Of a stretch of 64,000 bases of DNA, positions 11,511 to 31,100 are shown piece by piece (within the stretch, counting starts at the first letter, position 1; the number at the start of each line of letters is the position of its first letter). The DNA is from Raillietiella orientalis. Lineage: Eukaryota. The position numbers were made by a program, and so were the translations under genes. The notes under the pieces are model-generated. The model saw only the letters and a program-made list of their open reading frames with translations, made no database searches and was not told the origin of the DNA. The DNA lies in NCBI GenBank assembly GCA_036172245.1, contig JAYWIR010000038.1, forward strand, positions 1,674,001-1,738,000, written 5' to 3'.

Positions 11511-13247
11511 TGTGTTTTTTAGTTAAACGGATAACTAGCGAATGTTGTGTTTCATATTTACTTCATGTTTTAAACATAGCCTGGAAAGAAGGCTGTAGAC
11601 TGTTGCACCCATGGTTGTTTTGTGATGTGAATTCAAAGGAATCACAGAAAGAAGGCTGTAGCATTGTTTTGCGATTTGAATTCATTTCCTACTTTATGAA
11701 CTTTTAATTTACTCTGTACTATATTTTTGAGGTAGATAATGGCGTAATCACTTTTCATAGTGTTTCTTTGTATAATGCCGTTTATTAGCTGGAAATTGGT
11801 ACAAATTTATTTTTAGATGTTATGAAGGAAGACTTTTTAAAATCACTGAAAAACTACCATGCAACGCATTGCAAATGCCAGTTTCTGAATATAAGTATTT
11901 TATATGCTGGAGAATTTAGCCATGGGTTTCTCCATATTCCGCTTTATGCATTTCCAAACGAAAGATAGGAATCATTTCAAAACGAATACGGTCAAAACAG
12001 GAATGTGATTTTTGATGATGGAGAAGTGATGTTTTTAATTCTGACTAAACTGTAATTACATTGAAAAACTAAAACATCTATATTCTCGATGTGAAATAAA
12101 TTCATTTAATCGAAGCATGCGTTGGTAGAAGAAACATTTTTGTGTATCTTTTTGTGAGGGAGTGGTACATTATTTATGTTGAAGAATTTTTGAAGATGAT
12201 CTGTATGTTTGCCTATTCCATCTCCATGTATTTTTGTTTATTTTTGGCACTTCATAATGCTTATACGTCAGTCATGGTTCGTAAATGCTTTTAGTATGCT
12301 TGATAACTGAAAATTTCCGTTCACATCGCGATAATTTGCAATTTTGACAAGTAAACTCTCAAGGAAAGTTTTCAAAGAAAGTTTTTTAAGAACACTTCTA
12401 AGTTCAGTGCATTTCCAATGAAAGTATATTCAACGAGGTATTTTGATTTTGATGTGATGCTAACAATTCCTTGATTCACTCCATGACAATCCAAACGTAA
12501 TACGAATACAAGTTCTCTTCCACTTTAGTGATCGAAGTATATAATATATGAGTGTAGTCCGTTTTATCTTATATGCTTACCTAGAAACATGCTAAGTCAT
12601 CTCTTTGTCTGAGGCAAATATGAAGAAGGGATACTTTTGTTGAGAAAATCTAGAGAAGAAAAGCGAAAAATAAATAATGGATTTGGTAATCATATTCAAT
12701 CTCCCGATTTTTATTAATGGCGTCGTATTTTATTGAAAGTGCATGTGATGAAGTTTTAACCCAATTAATTCATATCCGGAAACCTTCTTTTGGTTAAATA
12801 AGTTTTTTAAAAGATACGGACGTTTGGTACTTAGTGTTTTTTCAGTGTACAATAGGTTTCCATGACTTTCTAATTACTCCTAAAATAAGTGGTGCTGATT
12901 CAGTTGTTCATCTGATGATATTAAGCATAATTATAAAAAAGTACTATAGAATACTGGGATATGCTTGCAGTTTTAATGTGGGTAAAAAAGTATCTTGGCT
13001 CTATGTGTTCGGATTGTTGAGAAATATTTCAATGTTATAATTATGCATATAGGTATTAAGACAGCGTATTGCACGTTGGTTGTGCTGTATCCGTTATCCG
13101 TATACATTTTAGGAGAATGTAGTCTAGTGTTTATGTGAAAATCGTGCATAACATTCTAATCAAATAGCCTGTTTTGATAGGGAAAATACATAGAGTCTTA
13201 ATTTTTTCCCCATTTTTTAAATTCCTTTGTAATTAAAGAAAATAAAA

Positions 13248-16200
13248 ATGACTCAGTTTCTGCCTCCGAACTTACTGGCATTATTTGCTCCAAGAGATCC
13301 AATTCCTTACTTGCCTCCATTAGATAAACTTCCACATGAAAGAAAAAAATCGCGCATTTTAGGAGTAGCTCAGTATTTGAGTGAATTTGAAGTAAGTATT
13401 CTCCAGGATCAAAGATAGTGGCTGCAAATGTTCTTGTAGGACCCAAAGGATACCCCCCCTATCACCAGAGTAGAAACTCGTGAAGAACGAAAAGAACGGA
13501 AAAGAAAAGAGAAGGCTGAACAGACTGCATATAAGCTAGAGCAAGAGATTGCTCTTTGTATGTAATGAACAAAACTTGTTGATTGTAGTTCATTGTTTTT
13601 GTTAGGGGATCCTCACAGCAACTCCATGGCTACAACAGATGCTTTTCGAACGCTTTTTGTAGCACGCATTGTAAGCAAAGTTAATTTTGAACTATAATTT
13701 GATCTTCTTTCAGAATTATGATACGACTGAAGCTAAACTGCGTAGGGAATTTGAAGTGTATGGACCTATTAAAAAGGTGAGTGTAATTTAGACTCATGTA
13801 CCTGGGGATTTTCCCATGCTTGCTACAGTAAGGATGGTGTAAATCCAGGGAAACTATATCCTCTCTGCATTATATTTCCTATCTAGAACAGGAAATGTGG
13901 TTTGGGCACAAAACTCACACATTGTATTTTCAGATTGTTTTAGTGCACAATACTGTGTCCGGTAAACCACGTGGCTATGCCTTCATAGAATATGAACATG
14001 AAAGAGACATGCATTGTAAGTGAGGGTGTGTTTAGGGTGTGTTGCATCTCCTGAGTTGGATGGGGTATACCTCCATCTGGTTGCCGTCCACCTCAAGGGG
14101 AGGCACATTGTGCTGGGGTCCCTGTCACAAGAGCATCCAGTAACACATGTTTGTGTTCCCCCTATCAGAGTGGTGCTCTGCTTCCCACTGCTTGTAGACT
14201 TGTACAGGCTGCCCTCCTTGGTTTGTATATGGGGGCCGTACACCATGCCACAGCTGGCGTGTGAGTATGGTGGTGCGTGAGGTGTGTTTGACCAGCATAA
14301 TGATGTCCAATGTAAATATCTGTGTTGTTGGTCCAGTATGTGTACACAGATAATTGCATGATGGGCTACTCGTGTATGGGCAGCTTCATGATTATATATA
14401 TCATAATGTAAAAGTGCTCATACACAGCAGACGATGCTCCCTTAGTAGTGGGAAATAAGTACAGCAGGGTATGAGCTTCCAGTTCTGTGGTAGGCAGAGA
14501 TGGGCTACTTTTGATAGGGGAAGGGATCTTGGTAAACGTGGAAGTCCAGAAAAATCCTGTTGTAGAGTGGCTACTAGCAAGTAGCTGTACTCTTTCCCAG
14601 TGTTTCTTTTCTTGTGCCAATGATGGCATGGTAGGTATTGTAACAAGACTAGATTCATCTGGTAGGTATTGGTTAGTATAATAAAAAACATGGTAGGTAT
14701 AGTGAGTATGGAGAAACTGCAATAGCTTGGTAGGTACTTGTGTAAAATGGAGATGTGTCTACATATTAATTGGTCTTTGGTGAAATGAACAGATGTTCAC
14801 CTAGCTATTGGTATGTATTTAGAATGGGCTGTTTTGTTATGAGATGGTAGGTATTTTATAAACCACATGGTAGGTATGCTTTGGAAATCTCCTTTTGAAA
14901 ACTGATATATATCTACCCCATATCATTATTATGCAGTACATGCACTTTTAATTGTTGATGTTCCATTATAATGCTACTAAGATCTCAGTTGAAATCATGG
15001 TGATGGTAGGTATTGAGATTAGAGACACCATATCATGTTCCATATTTGATTGCATTACGAAATCCCTTCATTTCCGAACACAAATCAACAACATTTGTAA
15101 AGCTTTGATGTGCTCTTAGAGCCCCAAACAGCTAGCATAGCAATTTTTGCCAAAGGAAATCTTGAAATATAAATGGTGCCATCATACATTGTGGTTCTTT
15201 CCTATCTCTTGTCTCCAGAACAATTTTACAATTGTGTTGGAAGTTGGATCACAGAACTGATTTCTTTGGACTATTTGCTTCTACAGTTTGGTGCCATCTG
15301 CAACTCTGTGGATGAGAAAGTTTTTTGTATCTCTGTGGTTGGTATGTGGTGGGTATTATTTTGTTGTTCAGTATTTGCTTACTAAACTTCATCTTGTAAC
15401 AATAGGTTTTTTTTTGTTTTTTTGTTTTTTTGAAGACTAAATAGATGTAAATCCATTATTTTGCATAATATCAGGCAAATCATCTGTTCATTCACGATTA
15501 GTGATATTTTATAGTATTTTGCTTATTTGGCATCATTATATTTGTGATTGCCCTTGTCATCGATTTGTTTCCGTTTCTTGTCCTTTGATATGAGCAGATA
15601 GTGATTAGATAAATTCAGAATTAGATTAATGTAGCTGTCTATATGCTATGTGGCTATTGCAGACACCTACAGAACCAACTTTTGTTGAACAGTAGCTATG
15701 TCTGGTGTCCTGGCTCAGTATCCTGAAAGTTAAAAATGAGGTTGTAAGTAAGAATATGAGTTGGTGGTAGGTATATTTGGTAGGTATCGTTATTAATCGC
15801 CAACCGTATTTTACGTAATTTTGCTGTTTTAAAAGATGTCGTTAATATTGTTTCACAAAGACAATTTCAATAAACATTGAAATTAGAGTTATGTAGGTCA
15901 AAAACATCTGCTGAGAGGAATACACAAATGTTGTTTGTACACTCATGCAGAATTTTTTATGCATAAAACTACAGGAAGGCTTGTGACCATATGTGGATGG
16001 GATAAAGATAGAGGGTTTGGGATGAAGGGACCGTGAGGTATAATTTTCTGAAAATGGGTGGGATCAGGGTGGTTGATGCTTTCCGCGCTAAAGACGTAGG
16101 TAAGGGAGGAGAATGTAATGTCAGCAATTTATTTTATGCTTTGTCTTTTCAGCTGCTTACAAGCATGCAGATGGCAGGAAGATTGATGGCAAACGAGTGC

Positions 16201-16891
16201 TTGTTGATGTGGAAAGGGGTAGAACAGTTAAAGGATGGCTTCCCAGAAGACTTGGTAATGTTGCAACTCATATTTCATTACAAAACAGGTTTGTTATAAG
16301 GTGGAGGACTTGGAGGCACACGCAGAGGAGGACCTGATGTGAACATAAAGCATTCTGGACGTGAAGATAACATGCGTTATCGGGATGATAGAGATGACGG
16401 GAAAATGCGCATGGATAGAGGCATGGATGATGGCATGCTTATGGGTGGCAGTGGAAGAGGTGGGAGAGGATTCAGAGATCGCATGAGAGATCGAGAAAGG
16501 GATCGTGATAGGGAAAGACGGCGATCAAGAAGTAGGGATCGTAAACGTCGTTCCAAAAGGTTTGTCAAAGTCTCAGTAGAAACTGGGAAATAATATTTAT
16601 GTAGTCGAGAGCACCGGAGACACCGTAGTCGTTCAAAAGATAAAGAACGCCGTTATCGTAGTCGTTCAAGAGACCGCAAGAGGAAAGAGGAAAAGAAAGA
16701 GAAACCCCGAATTGAGGAACCAGAAATGCGTATCAAACAAGAACCTCAAGATGGTGAGTTTAAAGATGCAGCTTATGTGTATTTGGATTATCAACATAGA
16801 TTATGGATATGGGAATTATGGTTATGTGAAACAGGAACCAGTTGATGACCAGCAGTATGGATACACTGGCTTCAATGCCCAAGATTATTGA
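13248..16891 (+). CDS. snRNP-U1-70K: U1 small nuclear ribonucleoprotein 70 kDa (U1-70K/SNRNP70), 357 aa, 9 coding exons
   Basis: Exons 13248-13391, 13440-13557, 13606-13670, 13714-13776, 13934-14015, 16153-16254, 16301-16559, 16605-16753, 16800-16891, all GT-AG and phase-consistent. Protein [24 protein letters not shown]...[32 protein letters not shown]...[62 protein letters not shown], then an RS/RD-rich tail. Confidence 0.97.
13800..13913 (+). ncRNA. Candidate intronic box H/ACA snoRNA
   Basis: Hairpin 1 (CCTGG/CCAGG, GATTT/AAATC, CATGCTTGCT/AGTAAGGATG). H box AAACTA at 13851-13856, 14 nt after the upper stem. Hairpin 2 (TATATTTCCT/AGGAAATGTG). ACA at 13908-13910. The host intron is 157 nt versus 43-48 nt for its neighbours. 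Confidence 0.55.
14601..14630 (+). other. Candidate PTC-containing (poison) cassette exon of U1-70K
   Basis: Acceptor TCTTTCCCAG (14591-14600) and donor TG|GTAGGTAT (14631). Read in phase 1 it gives LFLFLCQ* with TGA at 14621-14623. Confidence 0.5.
14629..15787 (+). promoter_or_regulatory. Array of U1 snRNA-complementary 5' splice-site-like motifs (TGGTAGGTAT x8 plus variants)
   Basis: Exact copies at 14629, 14660, 14691, 14845, 14868, 15004, 15765, 15778. Variants at 14670, 14728, 14809, 15347. Confidence 0.8.
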
Positions 16892-17054
16892 ATTTTTATT
16901 TTATCTTATTTTTGTGCATCTTTGATTCATTACACCTTGTACATTGTATACTTAAGAAACTGATATAATTGATGATGTTATGAGCAGTGCTCTTTACTTT
17001 GTGTTCAGTTTCAGATCAGTCAAGGTAATTGTGAGATTTTATGCAGATGCTAAC

Positions 17055-17110
17055 TGAATTAGAGTAAGAGCATTAGAAGTAAGTGAATTAGAGTAAGAGA
17101 CTTAGAGGTA
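17055..17110 (+). repeat. Two-copy tandem repeat (period 29) in the U1-70K 3' region
   Basis: TGAATTAGAGTAAGAG at 17055 and 17084, each followed by a TTAGA[A/G]GTA variant. Confidence 0.85.
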
Positions 17111-20100
17111 GTATATCACGTGATAATCCATAAAATAAGGCACAGCTTTAATAGTTTAAGTTTACACCGAAAGACTATGTTGATATTTTCATGGCTTCTT
17201 GTGTTAGCAAAATCTAATTTGTTAGTGAGATGCGTCATGTTATTTATATGAGTAAATTGTGAAAAAATATTGCAAGGAATGGAAGAATGTTACTTTTGCT
17301 TAGGTAAGAGATGACTTTTCAGGTTCTGTGTGGAAATTCTTTTCTTGCGGAAATTTCTTTTTAACTTTTTTTTATGAGAAATTCTTGTGGTGTCCTTTGG
17401 GAAGTTGTAATCTGAAGCATCCTAGGGAAAGTAGATCAGGTCAGTTTTGATTTGCTGTCATGACCCATACAAAGATTCACAGTGCCTGTGAGTAACTAAC
17501 GATGACACTCTTCAGAATTAAATATGTTTATTATACATGGAACTTGTACCGAATATTGCTTATGCAAGAAGTTGTTCTTCAAGGTGTGTGCAGGGATAGT
17601 TTTGAGGCATTTGGTTGGCTCATCGAGATTTCCCGGTTGCAGGCACTTGGAATTAAGAGATTTTGTGCCAACCGAATTCGCGAAGAAAGCCAGGAGTTAC
17701 TCCCATGTAATAACAGGTTTGGTTACCTAAAGCCCATCGTGATGTAATTGGAAGCCAGAGTCGGACGGGAGAAGGTAGCAAGTGGACATTGGCCTTTTTT
17801 GATTTTCGTACGCCGAAGCGATTGATCCTTTTTGCCAGTTGGTTGTTTCGGAGTTGCCATCTCTTTGAAACATACTATACACCCATCTGCAATAATTCCG
17901 AGTCGCAACTTAACATCAGATATATCAAGAATCGTATAAAACTCATTGGGAATTCGGCACTTGCATGGCGAGCGCACGCGAAGCCGCCCTCCGGGTGTCG
18001 CATTGACCTTGTGCGTGGGTGGGTAATGTCTTGCCTCATCCCATGGGAGATGATCTGCAAGGAGATCGGTGGCTAATCGGGAGTCCCTCGGAAAGCTGAA
18101 TGATGCCGTGGGAAACTTCTGTGGATTCTGTGGGTCTCCCTACTGTGCAGCCTCGGCAATCGAAAATGCCTGAAACTCGAAATATGCAAACCACGCACAC
18201 GGTCGCATGTGCTGCCCACCATTCAGTGTACGACTTGGGAGTGTTCGGCGCGGGAACACACGTTTTGTGGCATGGGAAACTTCCTTTGGACGAGCGCCTC
18301 CAAAAGTTTTGTTCGGCCACCGGAAGGGCGGACGGAATGACTGCGACGACCTCCCAAGAATTGGGCACTGTGCTAGTCATTGAACTTTGATTTGCACTTC
18401 AGCTTGCCTGCAGCGGCGGTGGTGAAACTGCTTTGTGAAATGGCCTATTTCAACCCTACCCACCCACCTCCCTAGCTTAGTGGATTCCTCGCGGTGGTCG
18501 TGTTCGATTGTTCGGGTCCGAGATCCAAACGTTATACTCTCGTTTTCTGTTGCATCAGGACGTTGCTTTGCATGTGGTAGCAAAGAGTGTGCTTAAGTCG
18601 ATGCATGGGTTTGCGCCATGCAACCATCCTCAGCTAACTTCCGGATCAGATGCCGTACCTTTCAATCCGGCTGCAAGTGAACAGGAAGGTCGTGCACGCT
18701 CTCAGGTCTGCAGCCGAAGTTCTTACGGTAAGAGGCTGCGTACAAGATGGAAATCTGCGCCGCCTCCTGCGTAGGCATGGCGGCGTTTGCCTCATCAGTA
18801 TTGCCAAGGTAGTAATGACATTAGTGAACCTAAAAGTATGTGCCATTAACATGAAAACGAAAACCGCTTCTCATTTTGGTGAGAGCACCAAAGTTGCCTT
18901 GAGTTCGCAGTGACATACACGAAAATCTGTTGCTCCCAGTACGTGGTGCTGCTTGTGGAAACTTCATTTAAAGAAATAAGATCCTTGATTTCTTCGAGAA
19001 CAGGACTTGATTCGTGCCAGTTCTGTCATGTGTAATCTTGTCTTTCCTCCGAAGTGCTCATCTGATATGTGATGCAGAAAAAAGTGTTTGGCTTGAATCT
19101 AGTTTTCTTTTTTTTGGTTGAAGTTTATCATTACGAGATAGTTTACAAAATTCTTGGTTCTTTTCTCGGTAAATGAATGTTGCGATGGTGAATGTTACAA
19201 GCAGGAATATCTTCTGTCGAGGAAATTTTTTTTATAAGACTGGTATTGATAAGACTATTTAAAAGCACCTTTTGGATACATGGGACATGTTTGGATTGAA
19301 GACAATGCTCAGAAGGAAAGCACCTGAATGGCGCGACGTGAGATGTATCTTATCATTATAGGGAGGCTGGTGTCGAAGCTTTCACATCACAATTTTTAAC
19401 ATGTCACATGCTAATCTGATTCTTCCAATATAAAACCAGAAGCAATTTCCAAAAGTTTGAACAACATTTAATGCACATGGAGATCTTGAGAGGACGGTTA
19501 AGAAAATTGCACTGATTTCTACGATTCAGGGCTACTGCAACTGTAAATACGGTAGCAAAGTCTATTCACACAGAGAATGGGAAAGGTTCTGTCTGCAAAG
19601 GTTGTCACTCGTCCGTGCCGGAAGTGCCTAAATAACATTGCATAAACTTTCCACCGCTTCTCGTGCAAGATTCACGCTTTAATTGTAGGTCAGTTGGTTA
19701 GCATGTGTAAGTATCGTTCCAATCGAGGTTGCCGATACATTAATTTGTGTGTTCAGTGTGCCTGTATGTTTGAGATAATTGTCTCGAAATGACTCATTCG
19801 AAGGTGCAGTAAAAAATCTGCTTTATTTTCATAATCAGGTCGTTACCTCAGTTAAGAAAGGAAAAGTGAAAATGAAAGTCGTTACTGGAGGCTGCAGAAC
19901 AAAGTTCTGTCCCGCGTTTCCTAGTGAGCCCCTGCTCTCTAGATTGAAAATTCTGCAGCGAGGGAACTCGAGCCATTTATTTTTATTCAAGTATCAAAGA
20001 ACACGATTCGTCCTCGTTCAGATGTTGTTACCCTGTGCTACTGTGAGACGTCACGAAGTACGGGTGGAAAAAAGAAAGAGGGAGCGAGCAGTCCTCAGCC

Positions 20101-22176: not shown

Positions 22177-25100
22177 TCAGCCGTGGTCCTTTTTCCAGTG
22201 ATGGCTTTTGCGACGTTTCCTCCTGCTCTCCTTGACAAATATCACATTTCCGGGATCACTAACTAAGAAAGGGAATTTCTGAATGCTCTGCGCACTAACA
22301 CCAGTGTATCCGGCTACTCGGCCTGTGGTTAGCAGCTCGTTTTTCTCCTCTTCAGACCATTCCTGGTGTGAATACAGTCCCTCTCTGGCCAACAGCTTTT
22401 CCCTGGACCAAGCACTCTCGATGGATGCTTGCAGTGCACTGCGCAACAGCTTTTGCCTTTCCGATTGGATATCGTCCGAATATATCACCACAAAGATGGC
22501 ATCGCCCGACTGAATCTGCAGAGCATCCGCGCCATCTTGGCGCAACTTTGTAAAATTCATGAGACCGCCGAGGCGATGCAGGTTCTCAAGATCGTCGGCA
22601 TGGCGCCGCGCTTCACTGTTGACGAAATAAAACACTTCCTTTTCTTGAGAAACCGTGCGTATGTCCAAGAAGTGCGAACCGTTCAAAAGCGAGATGATCA
22701 CGTCTTTGAGGATAGGGTTCACGCCTTCCGTGCTGACAACAAGTGCTTTGCTGTTCACCTCGGACACTAGGATCCCCGACCCGAAACCCACGACTTTCGT
22801 GGAAATCCTGGGGATCAGGTTCCACCTTCGGAAGTCCTTGGAGATCTTGGAACGGCACAGCGAGCTTAGGTCGGCGAACTCCTCGTTCAAGGTCATCACA
22901 ACGCTCTTGAGTCCCGACTGCACCTCGAAGGGGACGCGCAGTGTATGCGGGATGGCGTGCAGCCTATCGGTCTGCAGCTGTGAAACCTGGCTCTCCAGGT
23001 ACAGGGAGCCCAGCATGTCCTTCGTATCGTATCCCCTGAGCTTCAACCAGCTCCCGATACCTGCAATTGAACCCCCCCGTTTCGAGACGGCGCGCTTCCA
23101 AGTGTGGACGAACCTGTCATGTGGGCACTTTCCGGAAGAGGGGACGTGTTGATGGGATCGTTGCCGGCGAACCTGTACAGGTGAACTCCCTGGAGCTCGT
23201 AAGGATCGTTTAGCACCTCCATCCAGTTGGGTACCAAGTACTGGACAGTGAGCGGGTCGAACACCTTCGACTTGCTGAAGTACAGAGTGGTTTGGGCATC
23301 GTAGATGAAGCCGCGGTAGCCAATGGGAAGCAGGGAGTTGGAGTCGCCGACGGGTTGACCGAAGGGAGTGTAGCGTAGATGGCTGACGACGTTTCCGTCC
23401 GCGTCGAACAGGAACAGTGGGGTGCCCAGATGGTCGCTGGCGACGGCAAGGAACTCGTTCCCCTCGTGGGCCTCCAGCAGACGCCCGTGCAAGTCGTAGA
23501 CGAGGAAGAGAGTGCGATTACTGGGCACCCAATGCACGTGGGTGACGCGGTAGGGATTCCTGGGATCGGCGTAAAAGAATTGGGTGGCATTGCCGCGGTC
23601 GTCGTTCCAATACAGCAGTCGGTTCCTGTAGTCGTACCCGAACCACTTCCTGTACTTGTTGTGCTCGTAGGCGTGTATCAACTGGTTCCTGGCGTTGTAC
23701 TGCAGCTTCGCTTCGCCCCTGCGCACGACCCGCCCGCTGGCGTCATACGCGTACAGTTCCACCTCCCCGTATGCCAGAAGGCGGTCGTACATGTAGTCGT
23801 ACCCGAGAGAGATCGGCTGGCTCCTCCCTTCCTGGATGGACGCGAGATTCCCGTTCCTGTCGTACTCGTACCTCCACGCCTGGTCGCCGTCCCGGGAGAC
23901 CGAGGCCAGCGAGGAGGACTTGGTGTACGTGAACTCCTCCAGAGTGGCTCGCGAGTGCGGAGGCGAATCCGCGTCCGACGTCGTTGCCATCCTCCGGGAA
24001 AGCAAGCGGCCGAAGGAGTCGCGCCGTAGCTGCTGGGAGAAGACGGTCCTGCCTTTGACGCTCAGCTCGGAGGAGCTCTGCCGGCCGTACGCGTCCGACA
24101 CGAGGACGAGGCTGAGCTGCCTGCGGTCGTCCTGCAGCACGGTGACGTTGGTGGCGGCGCGGACGACGCGCACGTCGGCGAGCTCCTGCAGGGAGCCCGT
24201 GATCGGGTGGTACGTGAAGTTGACGAGCCTGCCGGCGGACGACGACGACGGCGGCGGGAAGCCTTCGATGGTGACCTCGACGCTCCTGGGACGCGCGTTC
24301 CCGTCGTAGAGGTACCGGAAGGACGCGCCGCGGAGTGCAGGAGGTCCCTCGAACTGGATCCGGAAGTCGGTCAGCAGGCCCGCCGTGTGTCGGTACGCGT
24401 AGTGGCACTGCACGGGACCGCCTCCGTCGTGGGTAATGCCGCTCAGCAGGTTGGTGGCCGCGTGGTAGTTGAACTGGAGCCTCCCCGGGCCGAAGAACAC
24501 CTCTCGGACGAGGGACGCGTTGTCGTACAGCAGGCTGACGCGCTCCCCGGACTGGGTGGAGACGCCGCGCAGGAGGCCACGGTCGTCGTACCAGAGCGAG
24601 AACGGGCGCAAGTGCCCCGGGGGACAGTACAGGAACCGGTAAAGGCCCAGTGACACCTTGACGAGGAACTCATGGACGAAGCCGGCGGGCGTGGTGATGG
24701 CAGACAGCGCCCCGCTGTCGTCGTAGGTCAGCGTGTAGGACTGGCCGTCGGGTCGCGAGAACTTCTCAGCCTGGCGTGGGGGGTGGAAAGGGGGAACGAA
24801 ACGGTGAGGCGCTCCTTGGGGAAGGGGGAGGGGGTGAAATGGGAGAATCGCTCACCCTGTCGCTAGAAGGATCGCGGAACACGTACGACAGCAGGAGACC
24901 TTCGGAGAGGTTGACCTCGGTCAGCCGGCCGGACCTGTCGTAGGAGTAGGTCTCGCTGGCACTCCCGCGGCGCCACTCCGCCATCCGGCCGTAGGGGTTG
25001 TAGCTGACGACCACCTCGTGGAGTTCGTCCCCGGAGCGCCACCTCACGGGCTTGCTGGCGTCGTCGTAGGAAACGTTGAGCAGTTCGCGCCCTCCGTCGG

Positions 25101-28100
25101 CGGCGCGCGCAGCCTCCGAGGACGTGGTCAGGTCGTACTCGACATCCAGAACGTTCTCCCCGTTGACCCGCATGCTGCGGCCGACGTCCACGACGCGGCG
25201 ACCACGGCCCTTCCCTTCCTTCCTCAGGAAGTAACGCCATTCGAAACGGTTCACCAGCTCCCCGGACACCTCGGCCAGCTGTCGGCTGGGCACCGGGAAG
25301 CGCTCACTCAGCGCCGGGTGCATCTCTCCGGCGACGGCGTCCGGAACGGTCTCAATGCGCACGACCTGGCCCCAAGGCCTCTCGACGTTTGTGCTGTCGT
25401 CCTGCCTCAGGAAGGAATACGTGTGCTCGGCGGCCCCTGGAACGGAAGTGTCGGTGAGAGGGTGGGCAAGCCGGCCCTTCTCTCCCGCGAACCTCGCGTC
25501 TCCCTCACGGAGTTCCCGTCGACCAGCAGGCTGACGAAGCCCATCGACTCGGAGCCGCTCGTCACGTACGACCCCTTGGCGCTGAGGTCCCACGACAGGG
25601 CGATGGACTGACCAGTGGGCGTGACGAAGGACGTCAGCCGTCCGTTGCCGTCGTACACATATTTGTACACCGTCCCCGAGCTGTCCTTCCTCGATTCCAG
25701 CAGTCCCGAGGTCCCGTAGTAGTCGAAGTGCACGCGGTGCCTCTCCGGGGTCACCAGCTCCTGCAGCATCCGCTTGGTGCGCGACATGACCACCAGCAGC
25801 TTCTGGTTGCGGAAGTTCTCGATCGAGGTCACCTGGTTCGCGTAGTCCCGAAGGATGGACACCTTGTTGCCCGACGCGTCGGTCACCGAACTCAGTTGCC
25901 CCGAACTCGTGTTCACGGTGTACGTGAAGCGGTACAGGGGCTTCCCCGAGGTGATGTCCCTCGTGGTCACGTGCTGTCCGAAGCGGTTGAATACGTACAC
26001 CTGCTTGGCGGTCGGGTCGGGGACCTCGTACTCGGCCGGCAGGTGCAGCAGGGAGAGCCCCGACGCCACGGCGAACACGCGGTTGTTGCCCTGGTCGCAC
26101 ACGTAAAGCGTGCCGTCGGGGGTCACCGTCAGCGACGTGATGGCGCTGAACCGAGCGTCCGGTGCACGAAAGTGATTCTCCTGGAAGCACACGCAGCCGG
26201 GATCCTTCTGGCAGTTGCAGCGGTTCTCGCCGCCGGCGAAGTCCCTGATCTTGCCGTCGCTGCCGATGGCGCGCACCCGATTCGACCGTTCCCGGTCGCT
26301 CTCGGCGACGTACAGGTCGCCGCTCGGAGAGAAAGCCAGCGCCTGGGGGGAAAGCAGCGGCGCGTGGATGGCGACCTGCGGGTCCGCGGACGGCGACAGC
26401 GGACAGTGGATGGGATGGCCCGCCACCAGCTTGACCTTCTTCCGGCCCGCCACCAGCTTGAACACGTGCGCCGTGTCCAGGAAGTACAGCGCGTCTTCCA
26501 GGGGGTTCACGGCCAGGTCGGTGGGCCACCGCAGCTCGAACTGGGAACAGCGGGCGGTGCCCGGACGGCGGATGCACCCTCCGACGACTCACCTCACTGC
26601 TGTCGAACAGCGTCGCGCAGGGCATCGGCGTCCATGGGCCGCGCTGTAGGTGGTTCCCCACCACCGTCACCACGATCCCGTCACGGTCCACCACGCGGAT
26701 GTTGGTGGCGTCCGCGAAGTACAGGCTATTCGACGAGGACACCGCCATCCCCTTCGGGTAGCTCAGCTTGGCATCCCTTGCCGGGCCGCCGTCCCCGCAC
26801 GCGCCCGCGTCCCCGGGCAGGCACCGCTGCCCGCTGCCGCCCACCGCCGCCTCCAGGTTGTCCTCCGCGTCGGCCGGGTCCGTGGGGTTGCGCACGCGGA
26901 AGATGCCGGGCGCCTCGGGCATCGACACGAACACCGACCCGTCGATCGGGCTCACCGCCACGTAGTAGTGGTGCGACGTCTTGTGGTCCCTGGGACACCG
27001 CGCCAGTGCAGGGGACGGGGAAGGGGCACATGGCGTTTGCACTCACCTGAACTTTACCACCGTCCTCACCGACCCATCCACGCGGATCCTCCGGATCAGG
27101 TTGAAGTCGGCCACGTACACGCTGCCGTCCGGCGCCGCCGCCACCCCGTGCGCCGCCAACAGCTGCTGCTGGCCCGCGGACGCGCCCTCGCACGGGCCGG
27201 ACGACCGGTTGCCGGACGCCACCTTCTCCAGGCACTCCCGAGATCTCTGGTGGCCGTCGCCCATGGCCGTCAGCACGATTCGCGGCTTCTGCTTCAGGTA
27301 GATGTTTCCGCCGTCGCCTCTGTGCACGATCCCTGAGGGGGGAAAGGACGTGGGGAAAGACGACGGACCACGCGACGCCCCTTTCCGCCCACCTACACCT
27401 CCTCACTCTCCCGAGCGCCTCACCTTCGTGGAAGTTGAACCGGTGGTGGATATCCAGGTTCCAGCCTCCGATCTCCGAGATGCTCATGTCCTGGGCGCTA
27501 ACCTTGGTCGTCTGCACGTCCCACATGATGGCGCCGCACCCGTCGTACTGGTAGCCCACCTTCACGGTCGCCGTCGTGACGCCGTACACGCGCTGGCTGC
27601 AGAGGGCATTCCAGCCGACCCTTTCTTTCTCGCGTCCCTCCCCGTCCCTGACCTGTACACGTTGTAGCGGTCCCAGGCGTACGTGAACTTGAGGTTGGGG
27701 TCCGCTTCGAGGATCTTCTCGAAGAGCACCCCCTCTATGGAGACGGACAGGTGCACCTGGCGAAGAGACTCCGGGATCGCGGGAGGCGTGAGCTGCAGGC
27801 GGATCGTGGACTTGTAACCTTCCGCCCTCGAGCTGTGGTACACGATGCGTATCTCGGTTCCGGGAATCTCCAAGCTCTCTTGGACCACCTGGGACTCCAT
27901 GAGGATGCCGCTCTTGCTGGCGTCTCCCCTCTGGAAGATGTGTTTCAGAGTCGACAAGACGACGGGTTTCATGAGATCGTAATCGTGATCCGGACAGTGA
28001 TCGGCGGCTTCTTCCAGAGCTTCGTCCGACCCGGTCATGCCGATGACGACGGGATCGATGACGACCACCTGCAATTCCGCGGGGTTTGCAGGTTCGGTTG

Positions 28101-31100
28101 GCGTTCCCCTTCCCCTGCGCGCTCCACCCCGCTTTCCCGCGCGCGCTCCGCCCCGCCTCACCTCGCTCCACGGAACGAACACGGCCCGGCGCTGGTTTTT
28201 GAACGGCACTCGGCCGAAGGACAAGGTGACCACTCCGCCTCCGTTAACGAGCAGGTCGAACCAGCCATCTGATCTCGTCAGCGTGAAGCCTTCGTGACGG
28301 TTGGAGGTGCTCACTCTCACGCTGACCAGTCCGGTCTTGGAGATGCTGCTCAGGACTCTTCCTCGTATCACAGACACACGGCTAGGTGGACAAGCACGGA
28401 GAGAAGGGTGCAGGGATAAAAACAAAGAAGGAAAATAAGGGAGCGGAGACAACCCAGACTGCAGCGGAGGAGGAGGAAGAGGTCTGAATGCCATCGGCAG
28501 ACACTCTGGGAGGAAGGATACGAAAAATCCGTTGCGGATCGTATCCTTCCTCTCTGGACTGCTTGCAGACGTCCCTGACCTAGCCCCCACAACATTATGC
28601 TTGCACACGAAGGGAAACCACGCAGGCACGCTCGACAGAGAGAACACAAAGATGATCCGCTGATGCCGAGCTCAACTGCAGAGGATTCGTTACATAGAGG
28701 CCAACTTACCTTGCATTGAATGAGTTCCAGAATGTGCTGATCAGCATGAAAGAAAGTAAAGTAACACATGAGTTCATTGAATTTGACAACACGAAAAGGC
28801 ACTCTCTGGCGCACCATGCAAACACGGTAAAAAGCTTTTCTAAGGAGGAGGGAAGGAACGGACGGGTAACTGTACTCCGGCGGAGTGCAGGGGCAAGTTT
28901 CATCCCACATTTCCAGTTCTTCGAGCAGCCACCACTGCAGCAATGACATATGAAAGGCGTAGAGCTCGGATTTCGATTGAGCGCAGTTTCCGAGGGAAGC
29001 ACGGAGAACGAGAAACTGCGCTGAATGCCGATGCAAGATCACGCGTGACGGGGGCAGCAACGATCGGGTCATCCGGTTCGCCATACAAAGCAAAATACAA
29101 AAAGTAGCAATGTACACCCGTACGCAATTAGTTGCGGCGCCGTGCATCCAGAGATGCTGCTGAAATTTTCGAGTCTCTACAGCTGGTTCGTCCTTTTTAA
29201 GAGAGCTGCTGAGAAGTCATCACCTCAACTGGGCAACCGCCATGTGCTTCTCGGAAACCGTGGCATAGAAGAACAACATCCGAGCGCAACCAAACGTCGC
29301 TGAGTACCATCACCAGGTACCAGGAACCATCTCTGAGATCTATTGCTCTGCATTTCAGGCGCCGCACCTTTCGTTTTCTCAGCGAGCCATCCTCCCGTCA
29401 TATCGTTGTTTCTACAGACGACGGAAAAGTTTGTGAACGCCAGGCCTCCCTTCTCGTGAAAGGAGGTGGGGCTTTCCCGATCAAACCTGATGCTGAGGAC
29501 AAGGAAGGGAACGTAGGGGCGCGGTGCCACTTCCGAGTCCAATCGCCACGTCGCGGAAGCGACTGCAAAGAGAGGGAGCGAGCGAGCAGCAGGTGCTTTC
29601 GGACACCCTGCCGTAAGTCCCTTACGTTCTCTTGGCAACGTGTGACGGTGGGAAATTTCCGATGGAGGTCTGAGACAGAAGGGACGCAGAACAGGGATAC
29701 AAGGCTGCTTCTGTTCGCAAAGGAGTCACTTCCTGCCTGTTGACGAGCACCTCCGGAAGGCTGGACATCCTCCGCAACAAGGGTTTCGGAGGTGCCAGGG
29801 AACCGGAGAAAGCCCCACAAAGACCAGCTTCCAGCGACTCACTTCCAGAGGAAGGCGCGTTTCCTCCACTACCGGCTACCCGACTTTTCGCACGCGTTCA
29901 CCGAAGAGTTCGGCCCCGGGCTGATTCTAATGCGTACACGCAGATGCCTTTTCCAAGACCCACGGGCCGCTACAGAAGGTCCGGGAAGTTTCGAGCCAGA
30001 GCGAGACAACGTGATCCGCTACGGATTTCCATCGAGATGAACGCACCATCTTCGGTAATTCCATGGCAGACAACGGAACGCATTAATTACCGATGCTGTC
30101 ATCTCGCCGGTGACAAATCTGATCTCGATTGCATCCGTATCTGTCAGTGTGCTGCAAACACGCGGGCGCAACTGCTCGTCCTGCTCTTCCTCTTCGTCCC
30201 TGCTGTTACTCAAACACACGATGGAGTCTCTCGAGGCGGAAAGTCGCTTGTGCAAACACATCCTTCTTTCACACATTCGGAAGCTGGGAGTGGACACGCG
30301 CGGCAGTAAAAACAACAACAAAAAAAGGTCCGGCTACTCTCCGAGCCAATTGGCAGTAAAAATTACCACAGCAGTCACACACATAGAGGTCTCCAGCGGC
30401 AGCAGTGACACGCAGCGCCCAGAGGTGCCACCACCTTATTCCGTTAGTGCACAATCCTCGGTCATCGCCTTGGGCGCTTTCGAATGCTGCTTCCGAAAGG
30501 GAGGTTCCCACGCATCAAAGGGGGGCGTTTCCATCACGCATTAATTGTGATTGTACAAGCTCAGTGCATTGGCTGTACCACACCCTGCGCTCATCTGCCC
30601 CAGGGGGGACGCGTCTCCGTTGCGCACGGATCCAGTTGATGAAAACGCCGGCCGAAATCTTTCCGACAGAAGGTCGCACCGCTTCACTGAAGGGGGGCTT
30701 CATTTTTTTGCAGGTGCCAACCCGAAACCCCGCGTTCCGTTCTTGCCCTCCCTCATCTCCTCCCCCCGCGGTGAAGAAGTCTCTCCAGCTCCCCGTTCTC
30801 ATGGCGCGGCTTGGGAAGGAAATGAGAAATGAAGCCCTTACGACCACACAGACGTTGACGCAGGATGGCTGTATGCGCATGGCTGTGGAGTTTCCGGTTA
30901 CGGATCCAAAGATTCGGCAAAACCTACGCTGTCTTCATTTCATTCGCCCACTGTGTTAACATGCAGCCTGCAGTCACGTGTTTACTACAAGCAAAATACC
31001 CGTCGGAGCGAGATACGGGGTTGGGTTACAACCAATCTGGCACCTGTGCTGCTGCGGGACACGGCATTGGGACATCTGTGGAGGCGTTCCGTGCCGGCAA

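Follow-up and report, generated by a model that had tools for sequence, protein, structure and literature searches.

A homogeneous array of U1-complementary sites in intron 5 of a Raillietiella orientalis U1-70K gene: a probable invertebrate counterpart of the SNRNP70 exon-7a feedback element

The closest described relative of the system considered here is found in vertebrate SNRNP70, the gene for U1-70K: its intron 7 harbors an alternative exon, 7a, together with cryptic 5' splice sites designated A-D, which underlie a cross-regulation between U1C and U1-70K (Rosel-Hillgartner et al. 2013, PMC3798272). The same source reports that the small nuclear ribonucleoprotein (snRNP) of U1 binds the cryptic sites additively, that blocking either these sites or the 5' end of U1 abolishes the use of the alternative acceptor, and that the alternative product is a target of nonsense-mediated decay. 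Here we analyze a 64-kb stretch of DNA from Raillietiella orientalis (contig JAYWIR010000038.1, positions 1,674,001 to 1,738,000; hereafter the window), in which intron 5 of a U1-70K gene holds eight exact copies of the decamer TGGTAGGTAT. An earlier note on this DNA had read them as a candidate sensor of U1 dosage and invoked the vertebrate precedent, an exon in an SNRNP70 intron activated through cryptic 5' splice sites in a U1C-dependent manner; the precedent is as it was described there (PMC3798272). We consider it probable that intron 5 represents an invertebrate counterpart of the SNRNP70 exon-7a/decoy-exon feedback, with the downstream cluster of U1 sites having been multiplied into a homogeneous array.

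Decoy exons favor the retention of introns (Parra et al. 2018, PMC6097662; Parra et al. 2020, PMC7373989), and the exon of SNRNP70 intron 7 (60/72 nucleotides, nt) was among the decoys tested, with retention mainly of the downstream intron (PMC7373989). However, the decoy-exon model requires an exon with both of its splice sites and does not provide for an array of donors alone at a long distance from an acceptor. In the genes for U11-48K and U11/U12-65K, tandem U12-type 5' splice sites bound by the U11 snRNP constitute the U11-dependent splicing enhancer (USSE; Verbeeren et al. 2010, via PMC3798272). The logic is alike in that the 5' splice-site motif of an snRNP is repeated in the gene of one of its own proteins and activates an upstream acceptor; the USSE, however, belongs to the minor spliceosome and comprises two copies of a U12-type motif, whereas the window has eight copies of a U1-type motif. 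The consensus of U12-type 5' splice sites is RTATCCTT, which has no match in the intron (14016-16152) and five elsewhere in the window; the array was accordingly rejected as a USSE, as the intron lacks tandem U12-type motifs. A feedback element made up of U1 sites clustered within the gene for U1-70K is already known in principle, as is its U11 analogue, the USSE. Motifs of the 5' splice site are also signals that inhibit polyadenylation, and Lee et al. in 2022 are said to have found that they act as nuclear-retention signals through U1-70K. Such cases resemble the one proposed here in that unused U1 sites on an RNA lead to its retention or loss, but they concern single motifs in the terminal exons or 3' untranslated regions (UTRs) of other genes, as opposed to an intronic array in U1-70K itself. 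Neither PMC11162794 nor PMC12179342 makes a statement on an intron of U1-70K.

The identity of the gene and of the intron is directly observable. The Pfam scan was made on single exons, which match U1snRNP70_N (65.2 and 24.1 bits) and RRM_1 (22.7 bits) above the cut-offs; together with the open spliced frame, these matches bear out the previous assignment of the host gene to U1-70K. In window positions, with a slash marking the boundary between exon and intron, the gene is organized as follows:

13248..16892, + strand: U1-70K coding region of nine exons, which reads open between ATG and TAA once the GT..AG introns are removed
13248-13391, 13440-13557, 13606-13670, 13714-13776 and 13934-14015, + strand: exons 1-5
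16153-16254, 16301-16559, 16605-16753 and 16800-16892, + strand: exons 6-9
14016..16152, + strand: intron 5, host of the array, 2137 nt, phase 1, after ...EYEHERDMH inside the RNA recognition motif (RRM)
14016..14023, + strand: authentic donor of intron 5, ATT/GTAAGTGA, with seven contiguous U1 pairs, fewer than each decamer

The introns measure, in order, 48, 48, 43, 157, 2137, 46, 45 and 46 nt; the bounds and length given previously for intron 5 are correct, whereas the 43-48 nt given for its neighbors do not apply to one of them, which has 157 nt. The encoded protein is approximately 80-84% identical (about 83% over its first 215 residues) to the U1-70K of tick, beetle and scorpion, and no closer homologue was found among the matches listed. 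Retention of intron 5 would stop the frame after two codons. Contigs from run X1 (its kind guessed as RNA; share 0.05), which over 13000-17400 covers only exons 6-9 along with a foreign U1-70K mRNA and leaves intron 5 uncovered, span the exon joins over the introns 16254/5-16300 and 16753/4-16799. One X1 contig over exon 6 begins two bases upstream of it (AG, window 16151-16153), at a depth of 4 that is too thin for a reading as retention or alternative junction. Downstream of the stop codon (16890-16892), in the likely 3' UTR, tandem repeats of 14/29 nt at 17024-17110 on the + strand contain the donor-like words GTAAGTGA, AGTAAGAG, GGTAAT and GGTAGTAT, and a strong U1-type site by the scorer defined below is present at 17304 (+), in the likely terminal exon.

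We looked for a module combining a location in the U1-70K gene, in an intron interrupting the RRM, with a cluster of at least three intronic U1-complementary sites, a conserved donor-cluster element and an alternative acceptor leading to a premature stop. The gene model and the single-exon Pfam matches place intron 5 in just such a location. Motifs were counted on both strands of the window, with chance expectations obtained from dinucleotide shuffles. Eight exact copies of TGGTAGGTAT compare with a shuffle mean of 0.02, and none of 100 shuffles reaches eight. All are on the + (sense) strand and confined to 14629-15787, without any other copy on either strand of the window, and copies 1-3 follow one another at an exact pitch of 31 nt; on the eight coordinates, the strand, the pitch and the absence elsewhere in the window, the earlier note was accurate throughout. 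The octamer GGTAGGTA occurs nine times, always on the + strand and within 14630-15786 (0.40 expected). When up to one mismatch to the decamer is allowed, 13 matches are found, 12 of them in intron 5 and one outside it (10931, TGGTAAGTAT). Among the variants previously listed, those at 14728, 14809 and 15347 are indeed one mismatch away, whereas 14670 (TGGTTAGTAT) differs at two positions; overlooked there were 15336 (TGGTTGGTAT) as well as two occurrences of the donor-like GTGAGTAT, at 14702 and 14261. Nor is the decamer a dispersed repeat in the sequence searched, which was the concern raised alongside the original proposal: it is absent from the rest of the window, and the sole exact copy among 76 related loci, in L060, falls in the orthologous intron. 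The array consists of:

14629..14638, + strand: decamer copy 1, TGGTAGGTAT, from the motif count
14660..14669, + strand: decamer copy 2, with the two-mismatch variant TGGTTAGTAT directly 3' of it at 14670-14679
14691..14700, + strand: decamer copy 3, with a donor-like GTGAGTAT after it (14702-14709)
14728..14737, + strand: variant TGGTAGGTAC, which with the preceding T forms the 11-mer TTGGTAGGTAC of L054 and L066
14809..14818, + strand: variant TGGTATGTAT, a one-mismatch match
14845..14854, + strand: decamer copy 4, from the motif count
14868..14877, + strand: decamer copy 5, from the motif count
15004..15013, + strand: decamer copy 6, from the motif count
15336..15356, + strand: variant pair TGGTTGGTAT and TGGTGGGTAT, 11 nt apart, one-mismatch matches
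15742..15752, + strand: donor-like TTGTAAGTAAG, 21 nt upstream of copy 7, from the U1 pairing scan
15765..15774, + strand: decamer copy 7, from the motif count
15778..15787, + strand: decamer copy 8, from the motif count; this last pair ends 365 nt before the 3' splice site

The eight copies share a sharp 10-nt core, outside which the base columns are mixed. The spacers of copies 1-3 are unrelated, and the flanks of all eight (15+15 nt) show 29.3% pairwise identity, as against 26.9 +/- 1.8% at random positions of the intron. Further, the repeat finder and TRF returned nothing but the motif itself, i.e., no tandem repeat or larger repeat unit over the array, in keeping with the prior description of the spacers as non-repetitive. 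Flanks at random identity around so sharp a core imply that the copies are not a duplicated unit and point to selection on the motif rather than duplication. We also considered RNA structure as an explanation and dropped it, because 14600-15040 folds no more stably than its shuffles (z = -0.07). The GC content of intron 5 is 48% over the first 600 nt and 34-36% in the remainder. The window as a whole is two-toned in this respect, with 34-46% at 10-22 kb, the part holding the U1-70K gene, as against 52-66% elsewhere; in the GC-rich stretches, many frames of either strand are open.

With the canonical U1 5' end, ATACTTACCTG, as the pairing reference, the decamer forms nine contiguous pairs from -1 to +8 with a single G-U wobble at +4. 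This is the pairing originally proposed, and the canonical end itself is confirmed by the oligonucleotide CAGGTAAGTAT, printed as antisense to the U1 5' end in PMC3798272. We then scored as strong those sites that have a GT and at least nine of 11 positions paired, at least eight of those contiguously. Intron 5 contains 12 strong sites in sense and one in antisense orientation; shuffles of the intron have a mean of 1.35, never exceed five, and in 0 of 200 cases reach 12. The window at large has 36 strong sites on the + strand, a third of which (12/36) are thus in intron 5, and 16 on the - strand. Hence, the module's cluster of intronic U1-complementary sites is present well above chance (12 vs. 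1.35 expected), and these sites, their strand bias and their excess are direct observations.

The array lies downstream of what looks like an ancestral poison-exon element at 14220-14282, which the earlier note had overlooked. The features of intron 5 outside the array are:

14169..14260, + strand: candidate ancestral poison/decoy exon of 92 nt, predicted, with the acceptor ...ccccctatcag/ ending at 14168 (pyrimidines 14/18)
ending at 14197, + strand: second acceptor-like site, predicted
14220..14228, + strand: GGTTTGTAT, sole copy in the window on either strand; core of the element found in 12/20 related introns and in the human exon-7a cluster
14261..14282, + strand: tandem donor-like stretch GTGAGTATGGTGGTGCGTGAGG, in which the site at 14261 has 10/11 U1 pairs
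15198..15218, + strand: strongest acceptor-like site in intron 5, predicted, pyrimidines 16/18, ...ctccag/, 119 nt upstream of the 15336/15347 pair

Positions 14265-14274 of the stretch GTGAGTATGGTGGTGCGTGAGG read GTATGGTGGT, which makes up the conserved element's second half and is likewise unique in the window (0.01 expected). The two halves, GGTTTGTAT and GTATGGTGGT, are both in sense orientation, 45 nt apart and 205-250 nt into intron 5, the element of the relatives being 164-580 nt into theirs. The conserved donor-cluster element is therefore present in the window, its halves aligning with 12 related loci, as a copy split by 36 nt. The position of the candidate exon (14169-14260) agrees with that in the relatives, where the conserved element follows 42-84 nt behind an alternative junction. 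As for an alternative acceptor with a premature stop, sequence prediction offers the candidate sites 14168, 14197 and 15218, two of which would give an immediate stop: at 14168 the carried-over T and the following AG would make TAG, and at 15218 the same T and AA would make TAA. Since the known acceptors of this U1-70K gene are pyrimidine-poor, often ending in TAG, the acceptor in use is not readable from the sequence.

For comparison with relatives, we used 31 aligned U1-70K proteins to search a metagenome collection, which recovered 76 loci, mostly spliced metatranscript contigs. Sequence between exons 5 and 6 is held by 24 of these (one empty, three near-identical), and a set of 20 regions remains when the duplicates L049 and L050 and the rows of no more than 100 nt (L047, L073) are left out. 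In the genomic contigs L069, L076, L059 and L074 the orthologous intron is, as in the window, the long one. The 24 loci together have 50 strong U1-type sites in sense and four in antisense orientation over 21,876 nt; the 20 non-duplicate regions have 46, as against a shuffle mean of 5.7 (standard deviation 2.3, maximum 12), with seven of them exceeding all 200 of their own shuffles and 12 having at least two strong sites. The density of strong sites amounts to 2.42/kb in the intron regions, as opposed to 0.21/kb in 80 kb of spliced mRNA contigs and 0.33/kb in the remaining parts of the same contigs. A ranking of k-mers made without any reference to U1 is headed by TGGTAAG, found in 16 of the 20 loci (33 sense, two antisense), followed by GTAAGTA, TAAGTAT and GGTTTGTA. 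Individual introns show clusters of their own: in L063 there are six sites of the TGTAAGTAT type, three at a spacing of 26 nt; L060 has four strong sites, including an exact ATGGTAGGTAT; and L069 has three copies of GGTGGGTAT. Sites of the GGTAGGTA type recur in L054, L060, L066, L067, L071 and L076, L054 and L066 share the 11-mer TTGGTAGGTAC with window positions 14727-14737, and paired sites 10-13 nt apart occur both in the window intron and in the relatives. Duplicates aside, the related introns can be aligned with each other over 19-98 nt only, at the conserved element or the poison exon. Hence, the expectation voiced in the earlier note for the orthologous intron, conserved motifs amid divergent spacers, is what we find: U1-type motifs are kept and the spacers are unalignable. 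Its notion of a multi-site array as an expansion of this lineage holds for the copy number and the identity of the sites, which are special here; clusters as such are not lineage-specific, the related introns having up to seven strong sites.

The element AG/GTTTGTATGGTGGTAAGA is present in 12 of the 20 regions. In six contigs (L047, L054, L055, L060, L063 and L066), exon 5 is joined to an alternative sequence instead of GT..., and in four of the six the element follows 42-84 nt behind this junction, which identifies it as the cluster of donors belonging to a short alternative exon. Every reading through the alternative junction reaches an in-frame stop, and in L054, L055, L060, L063 and L066 exon 5 is joined to the short exon with the rest of the intron kept, the form with downstream retention that was also reported for the SNRNP70 decoy exon. 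Going by these comparisons, both the U1-type clusters and the donor-cluster element are conserved in the same intron of other animals, and stop-bearing isoforms at this junction exist elsewhere. Predicted proteins tell of such products as well: E[RK]DMH is followed by the end of the protein within 35 residues in 14 of the 120 best listed homologues of exon 1 (longer proteins), five reading CKY... as from an unspliced GTAAGTA and nine having other tails, of which FRAAGN is common to two distinct proteins. Among the 14 are records that their sources assign to tick, beetle, horsefly and millipede. The set indicates that such transcripts or gene models exist; regulation is not implied.

Some of the related introns have peculiarities of their own. 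In L045 (914-945), L054 (685-716) and L055 (645-676), the element is enclosed in a perfect 9-bp hairpin (TTTGTATGT ... ACATACAAA) with a GGTAAG donor in the loop, an arrangement that could gate the poison-exon donor structurally. A second recurring element comprises two to three strong donors 10-12 nt apart (TTGTAAGTAT..TTGGTAAGT) and is found at L052:1015-1034, L060:991-1024, L063:1396-1414, L066:826-856 and L067:1060-1078; between L063 and L067, the introns of which are otherwise unalignable, it is 100% identical over 19 nt. The long related contigs L044 and L075 encode a U1-70K without an intron at the ERDMH position, and their lineages are, on the evidence of these contigs, devoid of the module.

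How far, then, does the likeness to the human gene extend? The morpholinos AB and 'AC' (PMC3798272) and the decoy morpholino (PMC7373989), all of which block the human cryptic sites, are reverse-complementary to a stretch containing TGGTTGGTAT, GGTTTGTAT and GGGTAAGA, with exon-intron marks after AAGG and after GTTT. Window positions 15336-15345 match the decamer of human 'site A', TGGTTGGTAT, letter for letter, and the conserved element AG/GTTTGTATGGTGGTAAGA is evidently an element of the human exon-7a donor cluster. Because of this shared intronic element, intron 5 would be the homologue of SNRNP70 intron 7. The two loci are alike in the gene, in GGTTTGTAT and in a cluster of intronic U1-complementary sites, with stop isoforms seen in the relatives of the window locus. 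In contrast, human SNRNP70 has three to four heterogeneous, mostly weak sites within about 40 nt, whereas the window has eight identical and about six near-identical sites, distributed along 1.16 kb that lie downstream of the relic element. The conservation of the SNRNP70 element has been given as 'among different vertebrates' (PMC3798272) and as 'from fish to mammals' (PMC7373989).

We propose the following mechanism. Intron 5 would be a cis-element of negative feedback on the U1 snRNP, with the TGGTAGGTAT copies serving as docking sites for the 5' end of the small nuclear RNA (snRNA) of U1, downstream of the relic poison-exon donor cluster (14220-14282). When the U1 snRNP is plentiful, the decamers would be occupied and would activate an upstream intronic acceptor by exon definition (the candidates being 14168 and 15218, with their immediate in-frame stops); they may also keep the downstream part of intron 5 unspliced. 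The resulting RNA with a premature stop would be degraded or retained in the nucleus, leaving less U1-70K. Conversely, with U1 scarce and the decamers empty, the weak authentic donor would be joined to the acceptor at 16152 to give productive mRNA. Eight identical and about six near copies would provide a higher occupancy signal per transcript. U1 binding to the decamers, dosage sensing, acceptor choice and RNA fate are all inferred here. A more far-reaching version, which we offer as speculative and rather unlikely, is the following: the partially spliced transcript, retaining the downstream intron and its approximately 14 high-affinity sites, might serve in the nucleus as a sponge for assembled U1 snRNP, or as a counter of it, buffering free U1 in trans besides shutting off its host mRNA; T at -2 and G at +4 would then mark tight U1 sites that are not handed over to U6, i.e., dead-end decoys; and the two-part layout of poison-exon donor cluster and downstream U1-site field would extend across animals, from these invertebrates to human.

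Several points weigh against intron 5 as a counterpart of the SNRNP70 feedback element. GGTAAGA is missing from the window copy of the conserved element; the coincidence of this codon with the end of human exon 7 is something we infer; and a search of the 64 kb with Rfam gave no hit, for U1 snRNA or otherwise. The scorer and its threshold are our own and were fixed after the motif had been seen. Strong sites are lacking from six of the 20 related regions (L045, L053, L055, L062, L065 and L074, several of them partial), and kinship among the loci (the exon is shared within the groups L052/L067, L063/L066 and L045/L054/L055) means that the 20 regions amount to fewer than 20 independent lineages. 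The decamer out-pairs the authentic donor for U1 (nine vs. seven contiguous pairs), so that simple donor competition predicts constant mis-splicing; the model therefore has to assume in addition that the sites work through exon definition or are poor substrates for later steps. Finally, T at -2 and G at +4 are invariant, where maximal U1 pairing would choose A at both; as pairing strength leaves them unexplained, some further constraint must act on the decamer.

In one alternative reading, the decamers are sites of another RNA-binding protein, of the UAGG-binding hnRNP A1 type or a GGU-rich binder, which silences or enhances the splicing of the long intron. UAGG is the preferred motif of hnRNP A1 and is contained in every decamer, and the two invariant bases are not needed for U1 pairing. 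However, UAGG, kept in the window copies, is absent from TGGTAAG and TGTAAGTAT, for which reason we rejected an hnRNP A1-type silencer cluster; more generally, the common motifs of the relatives (TGGTAAG, TGTAAGTAT, GGTGGGTAT) are mostly without it, while all keep the GT and the U1 complementarity to +8. With the host gene and the vertebrate precedent pointing to U1 as well, we deem such a protein improbable as the reader.

Just as improbable, in our estimate, is telescripting, i.e., the protection by U1 from premature cleavage and polyadenylation, in which case U1 would be recruited to shield a long AT-rich intron and U1-70K would depend positively on U1. The array region has a GC content of 34-36%, the other introns of the gene are 43-157 nt long, and AATAAA occurs at 14680, in the gap from copy 2 to copy 3, and again at 15869, which is 82 nt past copy 8. 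Nevertheless, these two poly(A) hexamers compare with 2.4 expected in intron 5, so that there is no excess to suppress. Moreover, of the ten related contigs first scored as stopping before VDVER, a marker of exon 6 (although two of them, L060 and L071, extend into exon 6), not one terminates in a poly(A) run, and the spliced poison exon with its in-frame stops in related contigs fits negative feedback instead.

Still less credible is the proposition that the decamers are working splice sites without any sensing, be it recursive (ratchet) sites or alternative donors that give harmless isoform noise. Every decamer does contain AG/GT (TGGTAG/GTAT), and the TAG-ending acceptors of this gene leave TAG/ possible as an acceptor. 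Yet this register regenerates a donor GTATNN without G at +5, the strong U1 register being the other one; the 12 nt upstream of the copies contain 40/96 pyrimidines (42%); and the commonest motif of the relatives, TGGTAAG, has no AG/GT. Recursive sites were accordingly set aside, as AG/GT is present by itself, without the pyrimidine tract and the strong regenerated donor. Equally far-fetched is a short repeat that was amplified recently and is neutral, or else an element of the DNA level (a cluster of transcription-factor sites) without any function in the RNA, although the exact 31-nt spacing of the first three copies could be a tandem-duplication trace. The 10-mer is exact in eight copies amid spacers at random identity, every copy and variant has the sense orientation, and a strand-specific excess of the same kind is seen in the unalignable introns of other animals. 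Each of these rivals is supported by no more than a detail.

Elsewhere in the window, the C-terminal part of a teneurin gene is encoded at 22177-28243 on the - strand (Pfam TEN_NHL, TEN_YD-shell, RHS repeat, Tox-GHH and a faint FN-plug); its spread over four long open reading frames overlapping in different frames implies short introns or frame shifts between them. An Atlas search with one teneurin reading frame returned few records, with Chordata as the commonest group. A 479-residue open reading frame at 2031-3467 (+), with an RVT_1 match of 29.2 bits just below the Pfam cut-off of 29.6, is probably a retroelement remnant.

To our knowledge, the sensing of U1 snRNP levels is understood in outline only, and in vertebrates only, where the sites are few, weak and overlapping and therefore hard to dissect. 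The present locus offers a natural construct with eight identical, well-separated and near-perfect sites, the copy number of which can be varied singly to distinguish an additive from a cooperative response. In the literature searched, which took in PMC3798272 and PMC7373989 without their supplements, we found neither a homogeneous array of eight identical near-perfect U1 sites, nor a field of U1 sites downstream of a poison exon described as a general feature, nor a donor-cluster element conserved beyond vertebrates. Our comparisons suggest that the human exon-7a donor cluster may be far older than 'fish to mammals', and that a field of extra U1 sites downstream of that cluster may be a general feature of animal U1-70K genes.

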